Shown here: piece by piece, positions 1-6,885 of the stretch | How the letters are laid out: each line of letters begins with the position of its first letter | Numbering within the stretch: the first letter of the stretch is position 1 | DNA from: an uncultured Gemmatimonadales bacterium | Lineage (GTDB): Bacteria; Gemmatimonadota; Gemmatimonadetes; Longimicrobiales; RSA9 | Length of the DNA stretch: 64,000 nucleotides | Assembly: GCA_963798085.1 (NCBI GenBank) | Contig: CAWCRS010000002.1 | Location: 1 to 64,000 of the forward strand | Reading direction: 5' to 3' | The notes under the pieces: generated by a model | Told to the model about the DNA's origin: nothing | Database searches by the model: none | What the model saw: the letters and a program-made list of their open reading frames with translations, nothing else | Translations under genes and position numbers: made by a program

Positions 1-51
1 ACATCTGAGGTAGTCCGTCAAGGGTTTGGGTAGAAGTTATTGGCAAGAGTT

Positions 52-1338
52 TCACGCAGCTTTGGGTAATTGGAGGTCGAGTTTGCGGGCCAGGTATGAG
101 CCTCGGCGTTTGAGGCTGTTGAAGTAGGTGGTTTCGTCGTAGGGGACGCGGTCACGCCAGCAGACAAACATGATGCGTTGCCATTTGAAGGCGAGGGCGC
201 GCACGGCGCTGGGATAAGTTTTACCTCGCGCGATCTGCTCCTTGAGATAGAGCTTGGCCCATTGGCAATGGAGGACTGATTGGAGGGCGTATTCGAAGAA
301 GCTCTGGTGGACGAAGTGAGGCCGGGCCCAACGGCGATGGATCCAATGCTGGTTTTTGCCGCTCTTCTCCTGCACGGGAGCTATCCCGCTATACTGTTGG
401 ATGGCCAGGGCGTTGTGGTAGCGGGAGCGTTCACTCCCAAAAGCACAGGCCAGGCGCGGCGCCAGAGTAGGACCGGCTCCGGGGAAGCTCTTCCAAATGG
501 AAGCATCCTGATGTTGGGCAAAGAGGTGCTCGATCTTCGAGTCGTACTCTTTGAGCGCGACCCCGAGTTGGAGTAATTGATGTGCCAGCATTTTAACCTG
601 GACAAGGGCTGGTTGGATTAAGGCCGCATCGCGGCAGAGTGGGATCATTCCCGCGATGGTCTGGAGGCGTTTTTCAATCACATCCATGCGCCGGCAGTTG
701 TGGGCGTAGTAAAACTTGCGCACACTTTCCTGACGCGCTTTTTGCAGCTCCTGGAGCGAAGGCCACTTGAGCAGGAACTGGCAGCCCAACGGGGCAAAGA
801 GATCCTGGCCGGCCAGTTCCAATGCCTGAGGATAATAACTCTTGAGTGCGTCGCGCAGCATATTGGTAAGAAGAGTGCGCAGGTCAATTGTGCTGCGGCG
901 CGCTTCCAGCAAACGCAACAGCTCCCGGGTCGCTCCATCATTGGCCAGCCAGGGAGTGAGTTTCTCCCGATGATGCAAAACCAATTCCAGGCACACTTGC
1001 GCGTCAGCGGGATCATCCTTGGCCCGGCTGGTTTTAAAAGCCTGGCGATACCGCGCGGCCGTGGCCGGGTTGATCGGATAAAGGACAAAGAAGGGATACT
1101 CCAGGAGCGCGTAAATGAGGGGGCCGCGTGCCTGCTCCAGACAGAGAGCGATTTTCTTTCCCCCGAAACGTTGCTCTAGTCCCTGGGCCCATTGGGCAAT
1201 GGCCTCAGGCGTGTGCTTGAGCGTGGAATTTTCTCTCTTTCCCGTGGCGCAATCATAGAGACAAAGGGCGTGCTCCTGACTCGCCCAATCGATGCCGATC
1301 AAAGCGCCAAATTGGTTCCTGCTGGTGATCGTGTTCAT
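52..1338 (-). CDS. IS110-family DEDD recombinase/transposase
   Basis: N-terminal IGIDWASQEH, CLEQ and KDDPADA (RuvC-like DEDD); C-terminal FPGAGPTLA...YSGIAPVQEKSGK (Tnp domain with conserved Ser). Start at 1338 (MNTITS) preferred over 1428, which overlaps the RNA stem. Confidence 0.93.
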   Translation of the reverse strand: MNTITSRNQFGALIGIDWASQEHALCLYDCATGKRENSTLKHTPEAIAQWAQGLEQRFGGKKIALCLEQARGPLIYALLEYPFFVLYPINPATAARYRQAFKTSRAKDDPADAQVCLELVLHHREKLTPWLANDGATRELLRLLEARRSTIDLRTLLTNMLRDALKSYYPQALELAGQDLFAPLGCQFLLKWPSLQELQKARQESVRKFYYAHNCRRMDVIEKRLQTIAGMIPLCRDAALIQPALVQVKMLAHQLLQLGVALKEYDSKIEHLFAQHQDASIWKSFPGAGPTLAPRLACAFGSERSRYHNALAIQQYSGIAPVQEKSGKNQHWIHRRWARPHFVHQSFFEYALQSVLHCQWAKLYLKEQIARGKTYPSAVRALAFKWQRIMFVCWRDRVPYDETTYFNSLKRRGSYLARKLDLQLPKAA

Positions 1339-1420
1339 AAGTTTATTTTTTTGTGTGTGGTGTCGATGTGATGGTTGATGGTTTCTCTTTCTTTTTGCTG
1401 GGGAGGGGCGAACACGCTTG

Positions 1421-1575
1421 GCTTTCATTCGGCGAAGGCATTATTGTCTGAGATCTCGAATGGATTCTTCATCTGAGGATTCGTTACGAATGAAAGCACG
1501 CCCGGCACCACTCGAAAGTATGGTTAAAATCGTCGAGCGATCGGCGATGCACATTCGTAGTGGGCCGGTGCGTGC
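1421..1575 (-). ncRNA. Putative bridge RNA core: target-binding loop (1496-1575) and donor-binding loop (1421-1497)
   Basis: Stem 1421-1431/1487-1497 encloses ATTATTG (1440-1446) and CATCTGAGG (1470-1478), matching the IS ends. Stem 1496-1516/1554-1575 encloses ATGGTTA (1520-1526) and GGCGATG (1543-1549), matching the attC flanks. Transcript ends unknown. Confidence 0.85.
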
Positions 1576-1722
1576 CCTCTTTCCCAAGTCTAATTGAACA
1601 AGCTCTTGGCCAACCTTATCAACCATGATCATTCCCACCGCGGCAGAGTTATTCACACCCTCGCTCCGCCACCTCTTGAGACCCGCCTCGCTCGGCCATG
1701 AATAACTGTTGGATGACCAATA

Positions 1723-1822
1723 ATGCGATGGAGCCAACCGCGAACCGGCCTTATGCCCAGATTTTTCCGCTCATGAACGCCACTCGTACTTCACGCGGTG
1801 GCTCATCTTGTTCTCGTTAGAT
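1723..1822 (+). other. attC site 1 (R'' end cut off by IS110 copy 1)
   Basis: ATGCGATGGAGCCAACCGCG...CGCGGTGGCTCATCTTGTTCTCGTTAGAT; R' at 1816-1822. Confidence 0.88.
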
Positions 1823-2273
1823 GCCATCTGCGTTCCGAGCGGCCTTCCTGTCATTGTTCACCCTCACAGCGATTGCGAGTGAGCCCACTCAGCTAGAGAT
1901 TGCCTGGGTGTGCGACGTTCACATGGATCGCGGACGTGGCTTTGCGACCGGAACAATCGGTCTCCGCGTCAATTCACAAGTTACCGTCATCACCGACCGG
2001 CCGCTCAACGAGTGCTATGTCATTCCAAGAGATCGATATCAGCTATTCGGTATTCCATCAGATGCCATCACCGCGTGCCACCACGGGTTTGGACCTTCTT
2101 CGGAGGAGCTTTATGTTCTGCATCGCGCAGGCCAGCTCCTCGTTTATGAAAGCGAGAGTCCGATGAGCGCCGCCCAGAAAAACCGAAGATTATTAAGCGT
2201 ATCACATATCGCGCCGCGGGCATCTAACCATGCGATCGAGCGAACGGCGGACCGCTGTGCGCGCCACTTTTGA
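1821..2273 (+). CDS. Cassette 1: hypothetical secreted protein (ORF runs into attC)
   Basis: ATG directly after R'; signal-peptide-like N-terminus. Confidence 0.6.
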   Translation: MPSAFRAAFLSLFTLTAIASEPTQLEIAWVCDVHMDRGRGFATGTIGLRVNSQVTVITDRPLNECYVIPRDRYQLFGIPSDAITACHHGFGPSSEELYVLHRAGQLLVYESESPMSAAQKNRRLLSVSHIAPRASNHAIERTADRCARHF

Positions 2274-2345
2274 GATGACTTCCACACTCCCACTCCGAGC
2301 GACGCGCGGTCTCGTCCGCCGTCGCTCATCTTGTTCTCGTTAGGT
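2222..2345 (+). other. attC site 2
   Basis: ATCTAAC (2222-2228) ... GTTAGGT (2339-2345); internal GAGCGAACGGCGGAC / GTCCGCCGTCGCTC arms. Confidence 0.93.
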
Positions 2346-2347
2346 CC

Positions 2348-2704
2348 ATGGAAGCACTGGTCGCTGTTGTGATTTTCGCCGTCAGCCAAGTGTGCACAAA
2401 CGCCGCTACTTCAGACACAATCACGTTGAAGGAGGCCGTCCGTGATCATTTGCTACTGTTTCACCCCCGTCCGGATTATCCAGATGAGGCGCGTCGTCGA
2501 GGTATTGTCGGCATGGCGGACTTCGAGCTAACCTTTGATTATGAGACCGGCCATCTTCGCGAGGTCCACCTCGCAAAAAGCAGCGGTTCACCTCTGTTGG
2601 ACGCCGCAGCCATTGCTGCCCTGAAACAGTGGAAGGCCAAACCTCGCTCGATTCACCGCCTCCTGGTGCCGCTGGGCTTTGCCACACGCGAGCATTGGCC
2701 TTAA
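2348..2704 (+). CDS. Cassette 2: TonB C-terminal domain protein
   Basis: PRPDYPDEARRRGIVG...KSSGSPLLDAAAIAALKQWK motif. Confidence 0.85.
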   Translation: MEALVAVVIFAVSQVCTNAATSDTITLKEAVRDHLLLFHPRPDYPDEARRRGIVGMADFELTFDYETGHLREVHLAKSSGSPLLDAAAIAALKQWKAKPRSIHRLLVPLGFATREHWP

Positions 2705-2711
2705 GGATCAG

Positions 2712-2842
2712 ACCTAACCAGGCGATGGAGCCAACCCGCCTGAGGCGGGCCGGCGTACGCTCAAGTTTTCCATGACTCCAAGCTCACATCCCGCTGCCAC
2801 GCGCGCCCTCGCCAGTGGTGGCTCATCTTGTTCTCGTTAGAT
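2712..2842 (+). other. attC site 3
   Basis: ACCTAAC (2712-2718) ... GTTAGAT (2836-2842). Confidence 0.92.
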
Positions 2843-2843
2843 C

Positions 2844-3178
2844 GTGAGCGCACTTCGCAGGTTGGCAATCGTCTCTGTGTCTCCTTTAGCGTATTGTTAA
2901 CGCTGACGGTCATGCTATTCCTTGCCACTGAATGGGCGAATCGAAGTGCCCAATTTGCGTTCGGAGATAAGGCGCGTCGTTTGCAAATCGACGGAAAGTC
3001 GGAGGCCTATGTCTTAGAGCACTTCGGGCCGCCTAGTCACACAAACCCGTCGACAGATGGTTCGGGCCACGTGCTCGTATACGTGCCGTGCAAGTGGTCT
3101 TTCTGGCCTAGCTACTCCAAGATTGCCATAGATGATCGCACCAGCACTGTATCCTTTTGGATGATAAACTCCGACTGA
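2844..3178 (+). CDS. Cassette 3: small membrane-anchored hypothetical protein (start uncertain, possible frameshift)
   Basis: Hydrophobic segment then SEAYVLEHFGPP motif; stops just before the next attC. Confidence 0.55.
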
Positions 3179-3181
3179 GCG

Positions 3182-3304
3182 ATCTAACCAGGCGATGGAG
3201 CCAACCGCTACCCGCTGCGCGTTTACATTTTAGATGATTGAAACACTTACACTTCGATTGATGCTCGCCGCCGGTAGCGGTGGCTCATCTTGTTCTCGTT
3301 AGAT
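3182..3304 (+). other. attC site 4
   Basis: ATCTAAC (3182-3188) ... GTTAGAT (3298-3304). Confidence 0.93.
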
Positions 3305-3582
3305 CCAAACGCCCGCTGCGATGATGAGTCGTCATCCTTGTGTCGCCGCAGAGTTGCCGTTATCATGAGTCCAGCGCGTGATCTGCTTTCGATGAAGCTT
3401 TCGGATAATTTCACGATCAAACAGTTGCGAAACCGTAGCCGCTATCGCGAGATGGCACGGTTTCGATCTAACCAGACGCTGGAGCTAACCGCCACCCGTC
3501 GCGCGTTTACTTTTCAGATGGCTAAATCACTATTACTTCGAGCCGAGCGCGCCCTCGGTGGCGGTAGCTGAGCTTATTCTCG
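3299..3582 (+). other. Cassette 4: apparently gene-less cassette
   Basis: About 160 bp between R' and R''; no ORF of convincing length that ends at the attC; hairpin at 3428-3465. Confidence 0.65.
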
Positions 3583-3588
3583 TTAGGT
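3466..3588 (+). other. attC site 5
   Basis: ATCTAAC (3466-3472) ... GTTAGGT (3582-3588). Confidence 0.92.
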
Positions 3589-3591
3589 CTT

Positions 3592-4005
3592 ATGCGTCCT
3601 GGCTTCGTGTTGTTGCTTGCGATTGCCGGAATTCTCACTGGCTGCAAGGCTTTTGAGTCACACGACTTCCTCATTACGCGCGCCACCCCTGGAGACGCGG
3701 CTCGGGTGCAGGCCATTTTGCGAGACGTCGCCGCTGAAGCTGGTATACCACGCGGAAGACCAACGCCGTATGATTCGCCGACGATCGCGCTTTACAAAGA
3801 CCCGCAGGTTCAGCTTCGAGCGAGCGTTTCGCGGGGCAAGATCGGTGTTACACTCATGCGATACGATTGGCCTCCTCCCAAAGCGTTCATCCAAGCCGAT
3901 CGTCTCCTCGTGCAGGCGCTGTCTGCAAGTTTTGAGGGGCGCTTTGGCATCCTAAGCGACCGAGGGGCAGAAGCCGTCGCAGAGCGAACGATCACTGTGT
4001 ATTGA
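3592..4005 (+). CDS. Cassette 5: hypothetical lipoprotein
   Basis: Signal peptide with lipobox LTGC; ORF fills the cassette. Confidence 0.75.
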   Translation: MRPGFVLLLAIAGILTGCKAFESHDFLITRATPGDAARVQAILRDVAAEAGIPRGRPTPYDSPTIALYKDPQVQLRASVSRGKIGVTLMRYDWPPPKAFIQADRLLVQALSASFEGRFGILSDRGAEAVAERTITVY

Positions 4006-4008
4006 AGG

Positions 4009-4131
4009 ACCTAACAAATCGCTCGAGCCAACCGCTACCCGGTGATAAGTTTCACTTTCGATGATTAAAGCACTCATTCCGCATTTCGAGCTCGCCGCCG
4101 GTAGCGGTGGCTCAGCTTTGTCTCGTTAGAC
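4009..4131 (+). other. attC site 6
   Basis: ACCTAAC (4009-4015) ... GTTAGAC (4125-4131). Confidence 0.92.
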
Positions 4132-4134
4132 CTA

Positions 4135-4506
4135 GTGCGCACACGAGTGTTGCTGATTGGTTTTCTGCTTGGGTTCGCTATTGCGACGTCCGGTCAAGTG
4201 ACATCGCCAGATCTTGTGGGAAAATGGATCGGCGGCAGCCCTTCGATTCCCGTCGAGTACACTTTTCGTGCGGATCATTCTTTTCATTACTCGGGGGGCG
4301 ATGTTGTGGGAGCGGGCACTTGGAGGATTCATGGCGGAAAGAAACTAGAACTGATCTATCACTACGACACTAAGCCGATTTCCAGTTCATCGGCTAGGGA
4401 ATGGTTTTTCATTGACTCAATCGGTAAAGGTCGCATACGAGCAAGGCGCTACTCCCGACTCAATGGCCAACTCTTACCTGCCGAGGTATGGACGAAGCAA
4501 CTTTAA
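4135..4506 (+). CDS. Cassette 6: secreted hypothetical protein, lipocalin-like motifs
   Basis: Signal peptide, DLVGKW and GTWRI motifs; ORF fills the cassette. Confidence 0.7.
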   Translation: MRTRVLLIGFLLGFAIATSGQVTSPDLVGKWIGGSPSIPVEYTFRADHSFHYSGGDVVGAGTWRIHGGKKLELIYHYDTKPISSSSAREWFFIDSIGKGRIRARRYSRLNGQLLPAEVWTKQL

Positions 4507-4507
4507 G

Positions 4508-4631
4508 GTCTAACCAGGCGATGCAGCCAACCGCTAGACCGCGCGACGCCTCACTTTCCAATGACTAAAACACGTTCATTCCAGATCACGCTGGCCCTCA
4601 CTAGCGGTGGCTGATCTCGTTCTCGTTAGGT
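4508..4631 (+). other. attC site 7
   Basis: GTCTAAC (4508-4514) ... GTTAGGT (4625-4631). Confidence 0.93.
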
Positions 4632-4633
4632 CT

Positions 4634-5006
4634 ATGAGGCAGATCGTGCCGATAATCAGTGCCCTTGTTATTACCCACAGCGTCGTTGCAGGACAGCAAT
4701 CCGCGACGCCCCCGCGGTATGGGCCCAATGGGTGGGTCCCGTTGTATTGCCCGAAGCCCGAGTATCCTGAATGGGCGCGAGCCAGGCATCTGGAAGGGAG
4801 CGGAGTATTCCTTCTGCGGCTTCGGCCAAATGGCAGTGTCAAATCGGTCGAAGTCGCAGAGAGGTACAGGGCACGCCGTATTAGACCGGAGCTGTGTTCT
4901 CACATTTCGAGAGTGGCGGTTCCAACCGGGATTTGCTAAGAGTATCCCGCAAGTGAAGATCCCGATCAGATTCACTATGGATGGCGCACGCTACGGAGGG
5001 ACCTAA
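4634..5006 (+). CDS. Cassette 7: TonB C-terminal domain protein (frameshift near 4860)
   Basis: PKPEYPEWARARHLEGSG...GSVKSVEV in one frame continues as TGHAVLDRSCVLTFREWRFQP...IPIRF in another. Confidence 0.82.
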
Positions 5007-5124
5007 CCGGGCGATCCAGCGAACACCTTCCCGTGCCGCGTTTACTTTTTAACATGGCCAGTGTATCATTCATTGCAGTTCAGCCTCGCCCCGGAAGGTG
5101 TCGCTGATCTTGTTCTCGTTAGGT
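5001..5124 (+). other. attC site 8
   Basis: ACCTAAC (5001-5007) ... GTTAGGT (5118-5124). Confidence 0.92.
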
Positions 5125-5146
5125 CTGATCCTGCCGGCGCGCTCAT

Positions 5147-5908
5147 ATGGACGTCTTCATCCACAAGAATGACCAGCAGATGGGGCCATTCTCGCCTCAG
5201 GACATTCACGCGATGCTCGAGTGTGGTGAAATCACAACGCAAGATTTCGCGTGGACTGCCGGGCTGCCAGATTGGCAGCCTCTTTCCAGTTTGCTATCAG
5301 CAGAGGAGAAGCCGGCGCGGCCGTCTTCTCCTCTGCCTGCCCAAGTGCTCGCGGGCACCGCTGACCGGCTCAGCCCAGGCGGCGATGGTAACCACAAGAC
5401 ATTAAGCAAACCCTTTATCCTGCTGTCACTCGCGCTGGCGACTGGTATTTGCGTTTTGGGTGGTGGCGTTCTGCTTTACAAGACCCGATCAGATACAGCC
5501 GTTGCTGAAAAGAAGCGAGATGACGCCGCACAGAACGAGCGCTTTCGCTCAGAACTTAACGAGCTACTTGTTGAAGCTGAGCAGGTAAACCTACGCGCGA
5601 AGGAGATATTCACAAACAGAGTGTTGCAGAATCGAGCGCACGACGAAGGAGATCTTGACGAAGCAGTAAAGTATGAGCGAGAGGTAAATCGTGTTCGACC
5701 TCTTTTTGAGTCGCAGTTTCTGACGCTCAAGACGCGGTTTGAACACATGACATTCCCTCCCTCCGTAAAGGGACGTGCCGAGTTTGCGAATGCGGTAAGC
5801 AGCTGGGAACGGCTCGTAAACGAGTACAGCGGCGAAGCCGCTATTGATGCTGAGATGCACTTTGTTGAAGCTAAACGCCAATTCGAATTTTACTTCCGCT
5901 TCCACTAA
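5147..5908 (+). CDS. Cassette 8: GYF_2/DUF4339-domain single-pass membrane protein
   Basis: N-terminal QQMGPFS...GEITTQDFAWTAGLPDWQPL, then a TM helix and a helical C-terminus. Confidence 0.8.
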   Translation: MDVFIHKNDQQMGPFSPQDIHAMLECGEITTQDFAWTAGLPDWQPLSSLLSAEEKPARPSSPLPAQVLAGTADRLSPGGDGNHKTLSKPFILLSLALATGICVLGGGVLLYKTRSDTAVAEKKRDDAAQNERFRSELNELLVEAEQVNLRAKEIFTNRVLQNRAHDEGDLDEAVKYEREVNRVRPLFESQFLTLKTRFEHMTFPPSVKGRAEFANAVSSWERLVNEYSGEAAIDAEMHFVEAKRQFEFYFRFH

Positions 5909-5933
5909 GAACAGAGGAGTTGGATGGGACAAG

Positions 5934-6037
5934 ACCTAACCAATCGCTGGCCGGTTCTCCCTTTCCTTTATGAATACCCAATCATTCCAAGCCACAATCG
6001 TTCCCACCAGCGGTGGCTCAGCTCCGTCTCATTAGGT
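5934..6037 (+). other. attC site 9, degenerate
   Basis: ACCTAAC (5934-5940) ... ATTAGGT (6031-6037, G>A at crossover); left arm GAGCCAACC missing. Confidence 0.8.
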
Positions 6038-6045
6038 CCGCATTG

Positions 6046-6597
6046 ATGTCCTCGCGCGGCTCGAAAGGCATTTTCCACAATCCAGGCTACGACTTTTATC
6101 GAGCGGTTTACCTCATGGCGACCGAGTCCGATGAAGTGCCGGTGAAGCTGGTCGCTCCCTACTTTCGGCCCATTGTTGCACTTATGTGCGCCTGCGCCTG
6201 CGTTGAGGGGTATGTTCACACCTGTGCGCAGCGCAAGGATTCATCATGGCGACCGCAGATTCGCGGTCGGGAGACTATCAAGAGCCGGATGTCCCGCGCA
6301 TACTCGCTCATCGACAAACCTGTGGACTTTTCAACTCAACCGTTCAAGGACATCATGGATTTATTCTCGTGCCGACGGCGTCTTCTCCACCCCGTGCTGC
6401 AGTGGGAGTATCGGAAGCAGAAGAAACCCGTTCCGGATATTTTCGATGAAGTTGCGAAGCAGTTTCCTCTGGCGCGAGTGCTGGCTCTGGTCGAAGCGTT
6501 TCGCAAGCGCATCACAGGCGATTTTGGCCTGCGGGATACTTGGTGGATGCGCTCCACTAACACAACCATCTACGACCTCTCTGACGAACCGACCTAA
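6046..6597 (+). CDS. Cassette 9: hypothetical protein, possibly HEPN-like
   Basis: Helical protein with ACACVEGYVH and LFSCRRRLLHP (Rx4H); stop codon lies within R'' (ACCTAAC 6592-6598). Confidence 0.6.
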   Translation: MSSRGSKGIFHNPGYDFYRAVYLMATESDEVPVKLVAPYFRPIVALMCACACVEGYVHTCAQRKDSSWRPQIRGRETIKSRMSRAYSLIDKPVDFSTQPFKDIMDLFSCRRRLLHPVLQWEYRKQKKPVPDIFDEVAKQFPLARVLALVEAFRKRITGDFGLRDTWWMRSTNTTIYDLSDEPT

Positions 6598-6599
6598 CC

Positions 6600-6885
6600 A
6601 TACATCTGAGGTAGTCCGTCAAGGGTTTGGGTAGAAGTTATTGGCAAGGGTTTCACGCGGCTTTGGGTAATTGGTGGTCGAGTTTGTGGGCGAGATATGA
6701 GCCTCGGCGTTTGAGGCTGTTGAAGTAGGTTGTTTCGTCGTAGGGGACGCGGTCACGCCAGCAGACAAACATGATGCGTTGCCATTTGAAAGCGAGAGCA
6801 CGCACGGCGCTGGGATAAGTTTTACCTCGCGCGATCTGCTCCTTGAGATAAAGCTTGGCCCATTGGCAATGGAGGACTGATTGGA
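6600..6885 (-). mobile_element. IS110 copy 2, partial (3' end of transposase), inserted in attC 10
   Basis: ACCTAACC-AT-ACATCTGAGG...; near-identical to 1-284 with scattered substitutions; similarity ends abruptly at 6885. Confidence 0.93.

Follow-up and report, generated by a model that had tools for sequence, protein, structure and literature searches.

The first 1724 nt of the window (the whole 64,000-nt stretch of DNA analysed here) very probably represent an element of the IS110 group, the left end of which encodes a two-loop bridge RNA aimed at integron attC sites and at the element's own ends; a probability of about 0.88 is assigned to this reading. The anatomy of the RNA-coding region, the insertion site, the conservation of the structure and the co-variation of loops and flanks in close and distant relatives are directly shown by the comparisons presented below. 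As to the class of mechanism, this is an IS110 bridge RNA, or IS110-type seekRNA, that is, a known kind and not a new system; the finding is less novel than first rated, since attC-aimed RNA-guided DEDD elements of the IS1111 branch are already described by Siddiquee et al. 2024 (PMC11187229).

The extent of the insertion sequence (1–1724, minus strand) was set by the junctions of a truncated second copy and of about 60 homologues. In the orientation of the transposase gene, its right end is window base 1, its left end is base 1722, and the copy of the core dinucleotide AT occupies 1723–1724. The gene (52–1338, minus strand) encodes a transposase/recombinase of 428 aa with matches to PF01548 (E 1.1e-22, 80.9 bits) and PF02371 (E 1.3e-08, 35.5 bits), both exceeding the curated cut-offs; comparison with PDB sequences revealed distant matches to the solved structures of ISCro4 (E 1.7e-06) and IS621 (E 2.2e-05), and the residues D17, E68, D109 and D112, invariant in the protein alignment, point to a DEDD RuvC-like domain. 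A longer reading frame from 1428 crosses the RNA core; the extra stretch of this frame is unconserved as protein and contains indels among relatives. The gene is preceded by 386 nt of non-coding DNA (1339–1724) and followed by 51 nt. An inverted-pair search found no inverted repeats, terminal or subterminal, joining both ends, and the upstream non-coding region together with ends of this kind indicates the IS110-group layout and not that of IS1111, following the distinction drawn in PMC11187229. The 6.2-Mb assembly of 12 contigs contains one full copy and one 284-nt fragment only. Base 1 of the contig that carries the array (C2) is exactly base 1 of the element, though the assembly has a single full copy; a repeat or a heterogeneous junction is a possible assembly cause of this break.

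Integron attC sites have the R'' box (RYYYAAC) and the R' box (GTTRRRY) at the ends of an imperfect palindrome. An nhmmer search with the array's own profile located nine attC-like sites of 104–132 nt at 1719–6037, all on the plus strand and all on the same contig as the element. Every repeat has ..CTAAC.. at its start, ..GTTAG(A/G)(T/C) at its end and an imperfect palindrome inside, with short plus-strand ORFs between the repeats, and the repeats thus have the form of attC. The element lies in the R''-L'' arm of the attC at the start of the array, and the rest of the split site occupies 1725–1822 (plus strand; E 3.7e-10 with the array profile). The junction at 1724/1725 reads ..GACCAATAAT|GCGATGGAGCCAACC.., or, from the IS end to the attC remainder, CCAATAAT|GCGATGG. 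The flank beyond window base 1 is invisible at the full copy, because the IS end coincides with the start of the contig; the attC flank TAACCAT, which had been postulated from the sequence of the window, is supplied instead by the truncated copy (6602–6885, minus strand). The latter, located in the array's last attC, comprises 284 nt from the 3' side of the element, with an identity of 96% to window positions 1–284. The flank of this copy at 6590–6601, CCTAACCAT, forms the junction CCTAACCAT|ACATCTGAGG (in the wider context, ..CGACCTAACCAT|ACATCTGAGG..; in short, TAACCAT|ACATCTGAGG). In both copies the insertion point lies 3 nt past the R'' box, and the element runs antisense to the cassettes. 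At the place of the core, the intact sites of the array read CAGG, CATG, CGGG or CAAT.

The array stops at the 284-nt remnant, and from 6886 onward the sequence is unrelated. Pseudomonas arrays reportedly often end in a degenerate footprint of an IS1111-attC-type element (Tetu & Holmes 2008); the fragment at 6602–6885 ends its array likewise. A gene of an integron integrase is present in the assembly at C1:447485–448429 (TIGR02249, 409.9 bits against a cut-off of 265), on a contig different from that of the array; a profile search of the assembly found no attC of the array's family outside contig C2, the neighbourhood of the integrase gene included, and the array itself starts at a contig end. 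Some contigs from soil and permafrost metagenomes join positions 1821–1824 to 2220–2223, omitting a cassette of 395–401 nt, which probably reflects attC ends common to the arrays of other organisms.

The MFE fold of the minus strand of 1339–1724 contains a 5' hairpin of the left end (1647–1707), conserved in homologues and located upstream of both loops, followed by two modules, each built of a stem, an internal loop and a hairpin, so the two tandem modules of the original prediction are both recovered. The fold z-score of the whole non-coding region is weak (only -1.74). The two modules make up the core of the bridge RNA (1420–1576, minus strand), which is delineated by the folds and by conservation of pairing. 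The target-binding module (1496–1576) includes an outer stem, an internal loop and a central hairpin at 1528–1542 and is supported by folds and conserved pairing. The donor-binding module (1420–1497) consists of an 11-bp outer stem, a CGAA/UUCG inner stem, an internal loop and a variable central hairpin; the perfect 11-bp stem 1421–1431/1487–1497, pointed out earlier, is present and was also returned by the inverted-pair search.

Each module carries two guide segments, all read from the minus strand. On the 5' side of the first module, the left target guide (1543–1552), RNA GUGCAUCGC followed by C (GUGCAUCGCC), reads like the top strand of the left target; on the 3' side, the right target guide (1520–1526), RNA UAACCAU, is the reverse complement of AT+GGTTA. 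In the second module, the left donor guide on the 5' side (1470–1478), RNA CCUCAGAUG, has the sense of the right IS end (the reverse complement of window positions 2–10) and ends 1 nt short of the core, and the right donor guide on the 3' side (1440–1446), RNA CAAUAAU, is the reverse complement of AT+TATTG, the left IS end at 1718–1724. The partners, in element orientation, are ..GGCTCCATCGC, core AT and GGTTAGG.. for the target, and ..ACCTCAGATGT (right IS end) and TATTGGTC... (left IS end) for the donor. The corresponding words of the plus strand, ATGGTTA at 1520–1526, ATTATTG at 1440–1446, CATCTGAGG at 1470–1478 (equal to 2–10) and CAATAAT at 1718–1724, are found exactly where they had been reported. 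The word GGCGATG at 1543–1549, proposed as the attC sequence on the other side of the insertion point, is also present and occurs in full in three of the eight intact attC sites, but the element's own flank, AT|GCGATGG, matches only the 6 nt GCGATG. The left target guide agrees with its own flank at 7 of 9 positions, with the attC at 4507–4631 (plus strand; …CTAACCAGGCGATGCAGCC…), the intact site that fits the target loop best when compared by eye, at 8 of 9 positions and the first core base; in close relatives, the agreement of guide and flank reaches 8 of 8.

The target loop precedes the donor loop in the RNA, and in both loops the 5' segment has the top-strand sense of the left half, while the 3' segment is the reverse complement of the core and the right half. 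This order and polarity, anticipated as being of the IS621 type, agree with PMC11208160 and PMC11208158. Of the guides around the 2-nt core, those on the 3' side include the core and end in AU; those on the 5' side do not read the T of the core and stop at the core or read its first base only (...CAUCGC-CG in the left target guide and ...CAGAUG-AAG in the left donor guide, versus AT).

A feature that the original prediction did not contain, and that this analysis adds, is the fit of the handshake guides. The target-loop handshake guide (1518–1519, minus strand), RNA AC, complements the donor GT 5' of the core and not the target GC, and the donor-loop handshake guide (1438–1439, minus strand), RNA GC, complements the target GC 5' of the core; both bases of both guides fit in the window copy. 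Since the handshake bases complement the other partner, a right guide and its handshake bases together match 9 nt at the respective junction of the element in its integrated state.

The expectation by chance was estimated with 20000 dinucleotide shuffles of the non-coding region, using words anchored at the junctions. Single guide words appeared in 4805 shuffles (the 6-mer), 265 (TAACCAT), 54 (the 9-mer) and 562 (CAATAAT), and all four words appeared jointly in 0 of 20000. Single 6–7-mers are unconvincing by themselves; it is their combination, their position in the loops and the comparative data that convince. Two additional words resembling the target, CATGGTT at 1621–1627 and GTTGGC at 1609–1614, both located upstream of the target module, were found in the window and one relative (L004) only and were for this reason treated as chance. 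A scan of positions 1–6000 against Rfam 15 (E up to 1) gave no matching family.

Soil genomes and metagenomes supplied about 100 relatives. Scanning genomes of species representatives with the protein as guide produced 25 loci, mostly from MAGs labelled Verrucomicrobiae, Chthoniobacterales, Ca. Udaeobacter or Spartobacteria, with one Bryobacterales; 13 of them align across the whole element and into the flanks, with a nucleotide identity of 73–80%. A scan of metagenomes added further relatives, 80 of 265 being kept. In the close relatives, the 155-nt two-module core is the best-conserved part of the non-coding region. When the two-module structure with both central hairpins was laid over ten sequences, 95.6% of cells were paired, compared with 31–45% when the 3' partners were slid, and five compensatory pairs, with both sides changed, were counted, a number matched by 0 of 500 shuffles; as these ten sequences average 92% identity, the covariation rests on few changes. 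A 22-nt insertion, a perfect GC-rich hairpin (CCCCGAATGCTTTCGGGG..), is located just 3' of the donor module in L005, L013, L014 and L017 and has no counterpart in the window; a terminator at the 3' end of the RNA and a tiny mobile repeat are two possible identities for it.

The flanks of the close relatives are uniform on the right and variable on the left. The right flank is GGTTAG in 59 of 62 loci, and the right core is AT in 61 of 62. The left target guide has three forms, ..UCCAUCGC, ..UGCAUCGC and ..UGCAGCGC, which are tracked by three variants of the attC flank. Comparison of guide and flank classes in the 43 loci possessing both the guide and the left junction showed a CT flank in 9 of 11 loci with a guide of class CT, a GT flank in 15 of 21 loci of class GT, and a GG flank in 4 of 11 loci of class GG, where a further 4 had one mismatch. 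At least 7 of 8 guide-flank identities were found in 36 of the 43 loci, and none of 20000 permutations of the flanks reached the observed sum (31 distinct insertions). The correspondence has exceptions. The window copy itself, with the guide form UGCAUCGC, is a mismatch in its TCCATCGC site, and the attC at 4507–4631 has TGCATCGC; donor-guide variants CCUCAAAUG (L011, L013, L014 and L017) and CCCCAGAUG (L008) are unmatched by the invariant end CCTCAGATG, and so is the right target guide variant UAACCCU of L005 by its flank GGTTAG. In three members of the close family with intact guides (L014, L015 and L033), the flanks bear no relation to the attC arm, perhaps because the insertions were off-target or the flanks were rearranged.

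The core dinucleotides of the left junctions are AT in 21 loci, TT in 12, CT in 9 and CC in 1 (n=43), so that the second base is T in 42 of 43. Variable left junctions, set against AT at 61 of 62 right junctions, lead to the conclusion that the targets are NT and the donor core is AT. According to PMC11208158, the top strands in IS621 are cut 3' of the core, so the target core stays with the left target; an AT donor meeting NT targets fits the junction pattern, given that the target core travels with the left target in that scheme. The junction statistics are, in this respect, a natural record consistent with the order of strand exchange in IS621, with the left core coming from the target and the right core, AT, from the donor. 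The earlier contrast between an AT core here and the CT of IS621 is accurate for the donor core but not for the NT targets, and the AT core is no departure from IS621, because IS621 itself tolerates AT: the same source describes a nearly invariant T as the second core base and GT, AT and TT as working cores.

A more distant set, with proteins 44–53% identical, consisted of 24 metagenome loci and L016; 23 could be aligned upstream of the gene, L103 and L106 having too little sequence there. The scaffold is retained in these elements (a stem ending in ACGA(A/C)N, a hairpin, then a stem AACGAAN ... (C/T)TTCG), and the loops differ. To place their ends, the donor guide was used on the left and a conserved right-end motif on the right, a procedure by which junctions could be biased by one base; L092 and L094 seem to be one base out of register. 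Similarity between the left guide and the left flank averaged 7.0 of 9 for cognate pairs (16 unique pairs) against 4.26 for non-cognate ones (n=234), and similarity between the right guide and the right flank averaged 5.36 of 6 (11 unique pairs) against 2.43 (n=96); 0 of 20000 permutations matched the observed values in either comparison. L098 and L107 differ by a single base of the guide (CAGG/CAAG), and the same base is changed in the flank. The left guide of L102 agrees with its flank at 4 of 9 positions only, a search with the donor guide recognised no left end in L093, and L089 and L097 were left out of the left-guide test because their left-guide region does not align. L016 (45% identity), when read alone, has an ambiguous core placement and a frameshifted gene, and it is interpretable only beside the other distant loci.

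Most of the distant relatives also appear, from their flanking sequences, to occupy attC-like sites. The right flank starts with GTTAG, GTTAT, GTTGG or TGTTAG in 13 loci; in 10 of these, the longest ORF of the right flank lies on the opposite strand and ends 2–66 nt from the junction, which is the geometry seen in the window, two of the remaining three have no ORF of 60 aa in flanks of 44 and 288 nt, and L112 does not fit. In reconstructed empty sites of L092, L094–L096, L105, L109, L112 and L016, inspected by eye, a TAAC-type box about 60–110 nt upstream pairs with the GTT box; the folds of the reconstructed sites have z-scores below -2 in only 5 of 15 cases. Several distant elements have targets that do not resemble attC: L098, L100, L102 and L107 lie at ..CGACAGG-CT-CAGGGCC.. 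and L089 at ..CT-CTCCCG.., and both loops and targets of these five differ from those of the window, so the case in which homologues keep the same loops in spite of different targets was not encountered. Together with L097 and L103, they share the scaffold and sit in non-attC repeats (..CGACAGG-CT-CAGGGCCCCGAG.. and ..CT-CTCCCGAGGGAGAG..), which look like other repeat families of the host.

The supposition that the loops address attC and the IS ends is supported by this co-variation in close and distant relatives, with 0 of 20000 permutations in all three tests, and the check for covariation across homologues that had been suggested at the outset turned out positive, as guides track flanks and the stems show the five compensatory pairs. 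The handshake rule was examined in 24 tabulated loci. As given in PMC11208158, the two bases 3' of the right guide in IS621 pair with positions 6–7 of the other DNA once the top strands have been exchanged, and pairing with their own DNA has to be avoided. In the target-loop handshake guide, base one suits the donor in 20 of 20 loci and base two in 17 of 20, and this handshake is AG where the donor end is CT (L092 and L112); the first base of the donor-loop handshake guide fits the target in only 14 of 22 loci.

The proposed course of transposition follows from the assignment of the guides. The first loop would pair with both strands of the attC R''-L'' arm, the target being CTAACC-AN-GCGATGG in the sense of the cassettes and ..C(C/G)CATCGC-NT-GGTTAG in the orientation of the element, and the second loop would bind the ends of the element where they abut after excision (..CCTCAGATGT-AT-TATTGGTC..). 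Recombination would take place at the 2-nt core, as in IS621, and once the top strands have been exchanged, the handshake bases 3' of the right guides would each find their complement in the other partner. We infer that the RNA is made, is bound by the protein and directs recombination.

Compared with the IS621 papers (Durrant et al. 2024, PMC11208160; Hiraizumi et al. 2024, PMC11208158), the element shares with IS621 a DEDD + Tnp recombinase, an RNA encoded in the left end 5' of the gene with the target loop preceding the donor loop, a 2-nt core with T as the second base, and handshake bases 3' of the right guides. Differences from IS621 lie in the donor core, AT; in the 5' guides, which stop at the core or go no further than its first base (IS621 guides cover the core); in the right target guide of 7 nt; and in the natural target, the arm of an integron attC site. 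With 428 aa, the protein exceeds the 328 aa of the IS621 chain, to which it has only a distant relationship (E 2.2e-05). The presence of the core in all four guides is a feature of IS621, though not necessarily one that defines the family. Another IS110 element, the seekRNA-encoding ISEc21, resembles the element of the window, by the description in PMC11187229, in its upstream non-coding region, in the 5' position of the bottom-strand match and in the promoter at the circle junction, for which there is a candidate here, and differs in its target, a conserved stretch of IS3-family transposase genes, and in its class of transposases, 345–385 aa.

A promoter scan detected no sigma-70-like promoter at 1300–1900 of the integrated copy. 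The right end contains an invariant candidate -35 element, TTGACG (16–21, minus strand), and the left end a weak candidate -10 element, TATTGG (1717–1722, minus strand); read from the sequence, they would form a promoter with a spacing of 17 nt only when the ends are joined across the circle junction. The distant relatives have TTGACG, 18 nt and then TATAGT. The main source of bridge-RNA expression may be a promoter that arises where the ends meet in the circle; a promoter in this position is described for ISEc21 in PMC11187229. Words from the stretch are contained, to the extent of 5–6%, in 24 sequencing runs, none of them registered as RNA. The contigs of four runs from soil and permafrost included none that spanned the element or the circle junction and showed only fragments of relatives and repeated attC ends.

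The alternative explanations differ in how much of the above they can accommodate. The conserved 155-nt region might be a feature of the DNA level, such as subterminal protein-binding sites or a translational leader, the matches then being repeats of the ends and not guides. The donor-side segments do literally copy, or reverse-complement, the IS ends, and no sequencing run holding the stretch is recorded as RNA, as this explanation would allow; however, the segments on the target side correspond to host sequence beyond the element and vary along with it, the stems stay paired through compensatory changes, and the polarity of the four segments and the handshake bases are predicted by the RNA model and are not required by DNA repeats, which makes this explanation highly improbable. 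Still less credible is the assignment of the element to the known IS1111-attC group (the ISKpn4, ISPst6 and ISPa21 type) with a short seekRNA. According to PMC11187229, members of this group such as ISKpn4, ISPst6 and ISPa25 are DEDD-family elements that also target one end of attC sites, in a fixed position and orientation, and are also guided by a short RNA from the non-coding region of the element, the RNAs of ISKpn4 and ISPst6 having been shown to carry attC matches; the protein superfamily is common as well. By the same account, though, these elements, known from Pseudomonas and clinical integrons, have their RNA and non-coding region downstream of the gene, subterminal inverted repeats, shorter transposases (330–350 aa being stated for IS1111) and the top-strand match before the bottom-strand match, whereas here the long non-coding region is upstream, subterminal inverted repeats are absent, the protein has 428 aa, and the match to the bottom strand precedes that to the top strand, as in IS110.

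A different question is whether the copy in the window still moves. It could be a fossil of bridge-RNA design, intact in sequence, in an array that holds relics only; the single full copy and single 284-nt fragment in the 6.2-Mb assembly, the mismatch between the left target guide and its own flank, and the integrated copy's want of a promoter-like site at 1300–1900 would all suit this scenario. On the other hand, the reading frame is open and aligns over its full length with that of L004 at 83% identity, both ends and all four guides are intact, and the contig breaks exactly at the IS end, as a repeat or heterogeneous junction would cause, the last point being a weak one. Loss of activity is rather unlikely, if clearly less so than the two preceding alternatives, and we infer that the copy of the window, with its bridge RNA, is still active.

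In the literature, no description of an upstream-RNA IS110-type element aimed at attC was found, and the supplements of PMC11208160 and PMC11187229 may list such targets; a full-text search for 'bridge RNA' together with attC returned a mention in a reference list only. It is about an even question whether the relatives constitute a clade of IS110-type bridge-RNA elements, with proteins 44–90% identical, that specialises on cassette arrays. Such a clade would be represented in Verrucomicrobiota, in one MAG each of Bryobacterales and Chromatiales, and on many contigs of soil, wetland and marine metagenomes; its attC-type members would all be inserted antisense to the cassettes, just behind the stop and the R'' box, with the right target guide fixed on the R'' box (GTTAG, GTTGG or TGTTAG in element orientation) and the left target guide diversifying after the L'' sequence of each attC family. 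If this is true, elements of the clade split attC sites and leave array-ending footprints like that at 6602–6885, and they shape the evolution of integrons beyond the clinical Proteobacteria, where the IS1111 relatives first showed it. The insertions described here show that DEDD elements of the IS110 branch, presumed to be RNA-guided, parasitise the chromosomal cassette arrays of soil Verrucomicrobiota in parallel to the IS1111-attC elements of Pseudomonas. The relatives also offer a natural and well-replicated series of bridge RNAs, in which one scaffold carries guides re-aimed at different variants of attC or, in part of the relatives, at repeats other than attC; the series can be useful for studying guide length, core tolerance and handshake rules in a branch of long proteins far from IS621.

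Related genes are present on plasmids, too. In the one Klebsiella plasmid example looked at (H12), the gene adjoins relBE, with no integron around it; altogether, 885 plasmid records, including 250 of Klebsiella, contain IS110-family genes 41–46% identical to that of the window (e.g., L113, NZ_CP100521.1, 46101–47339).
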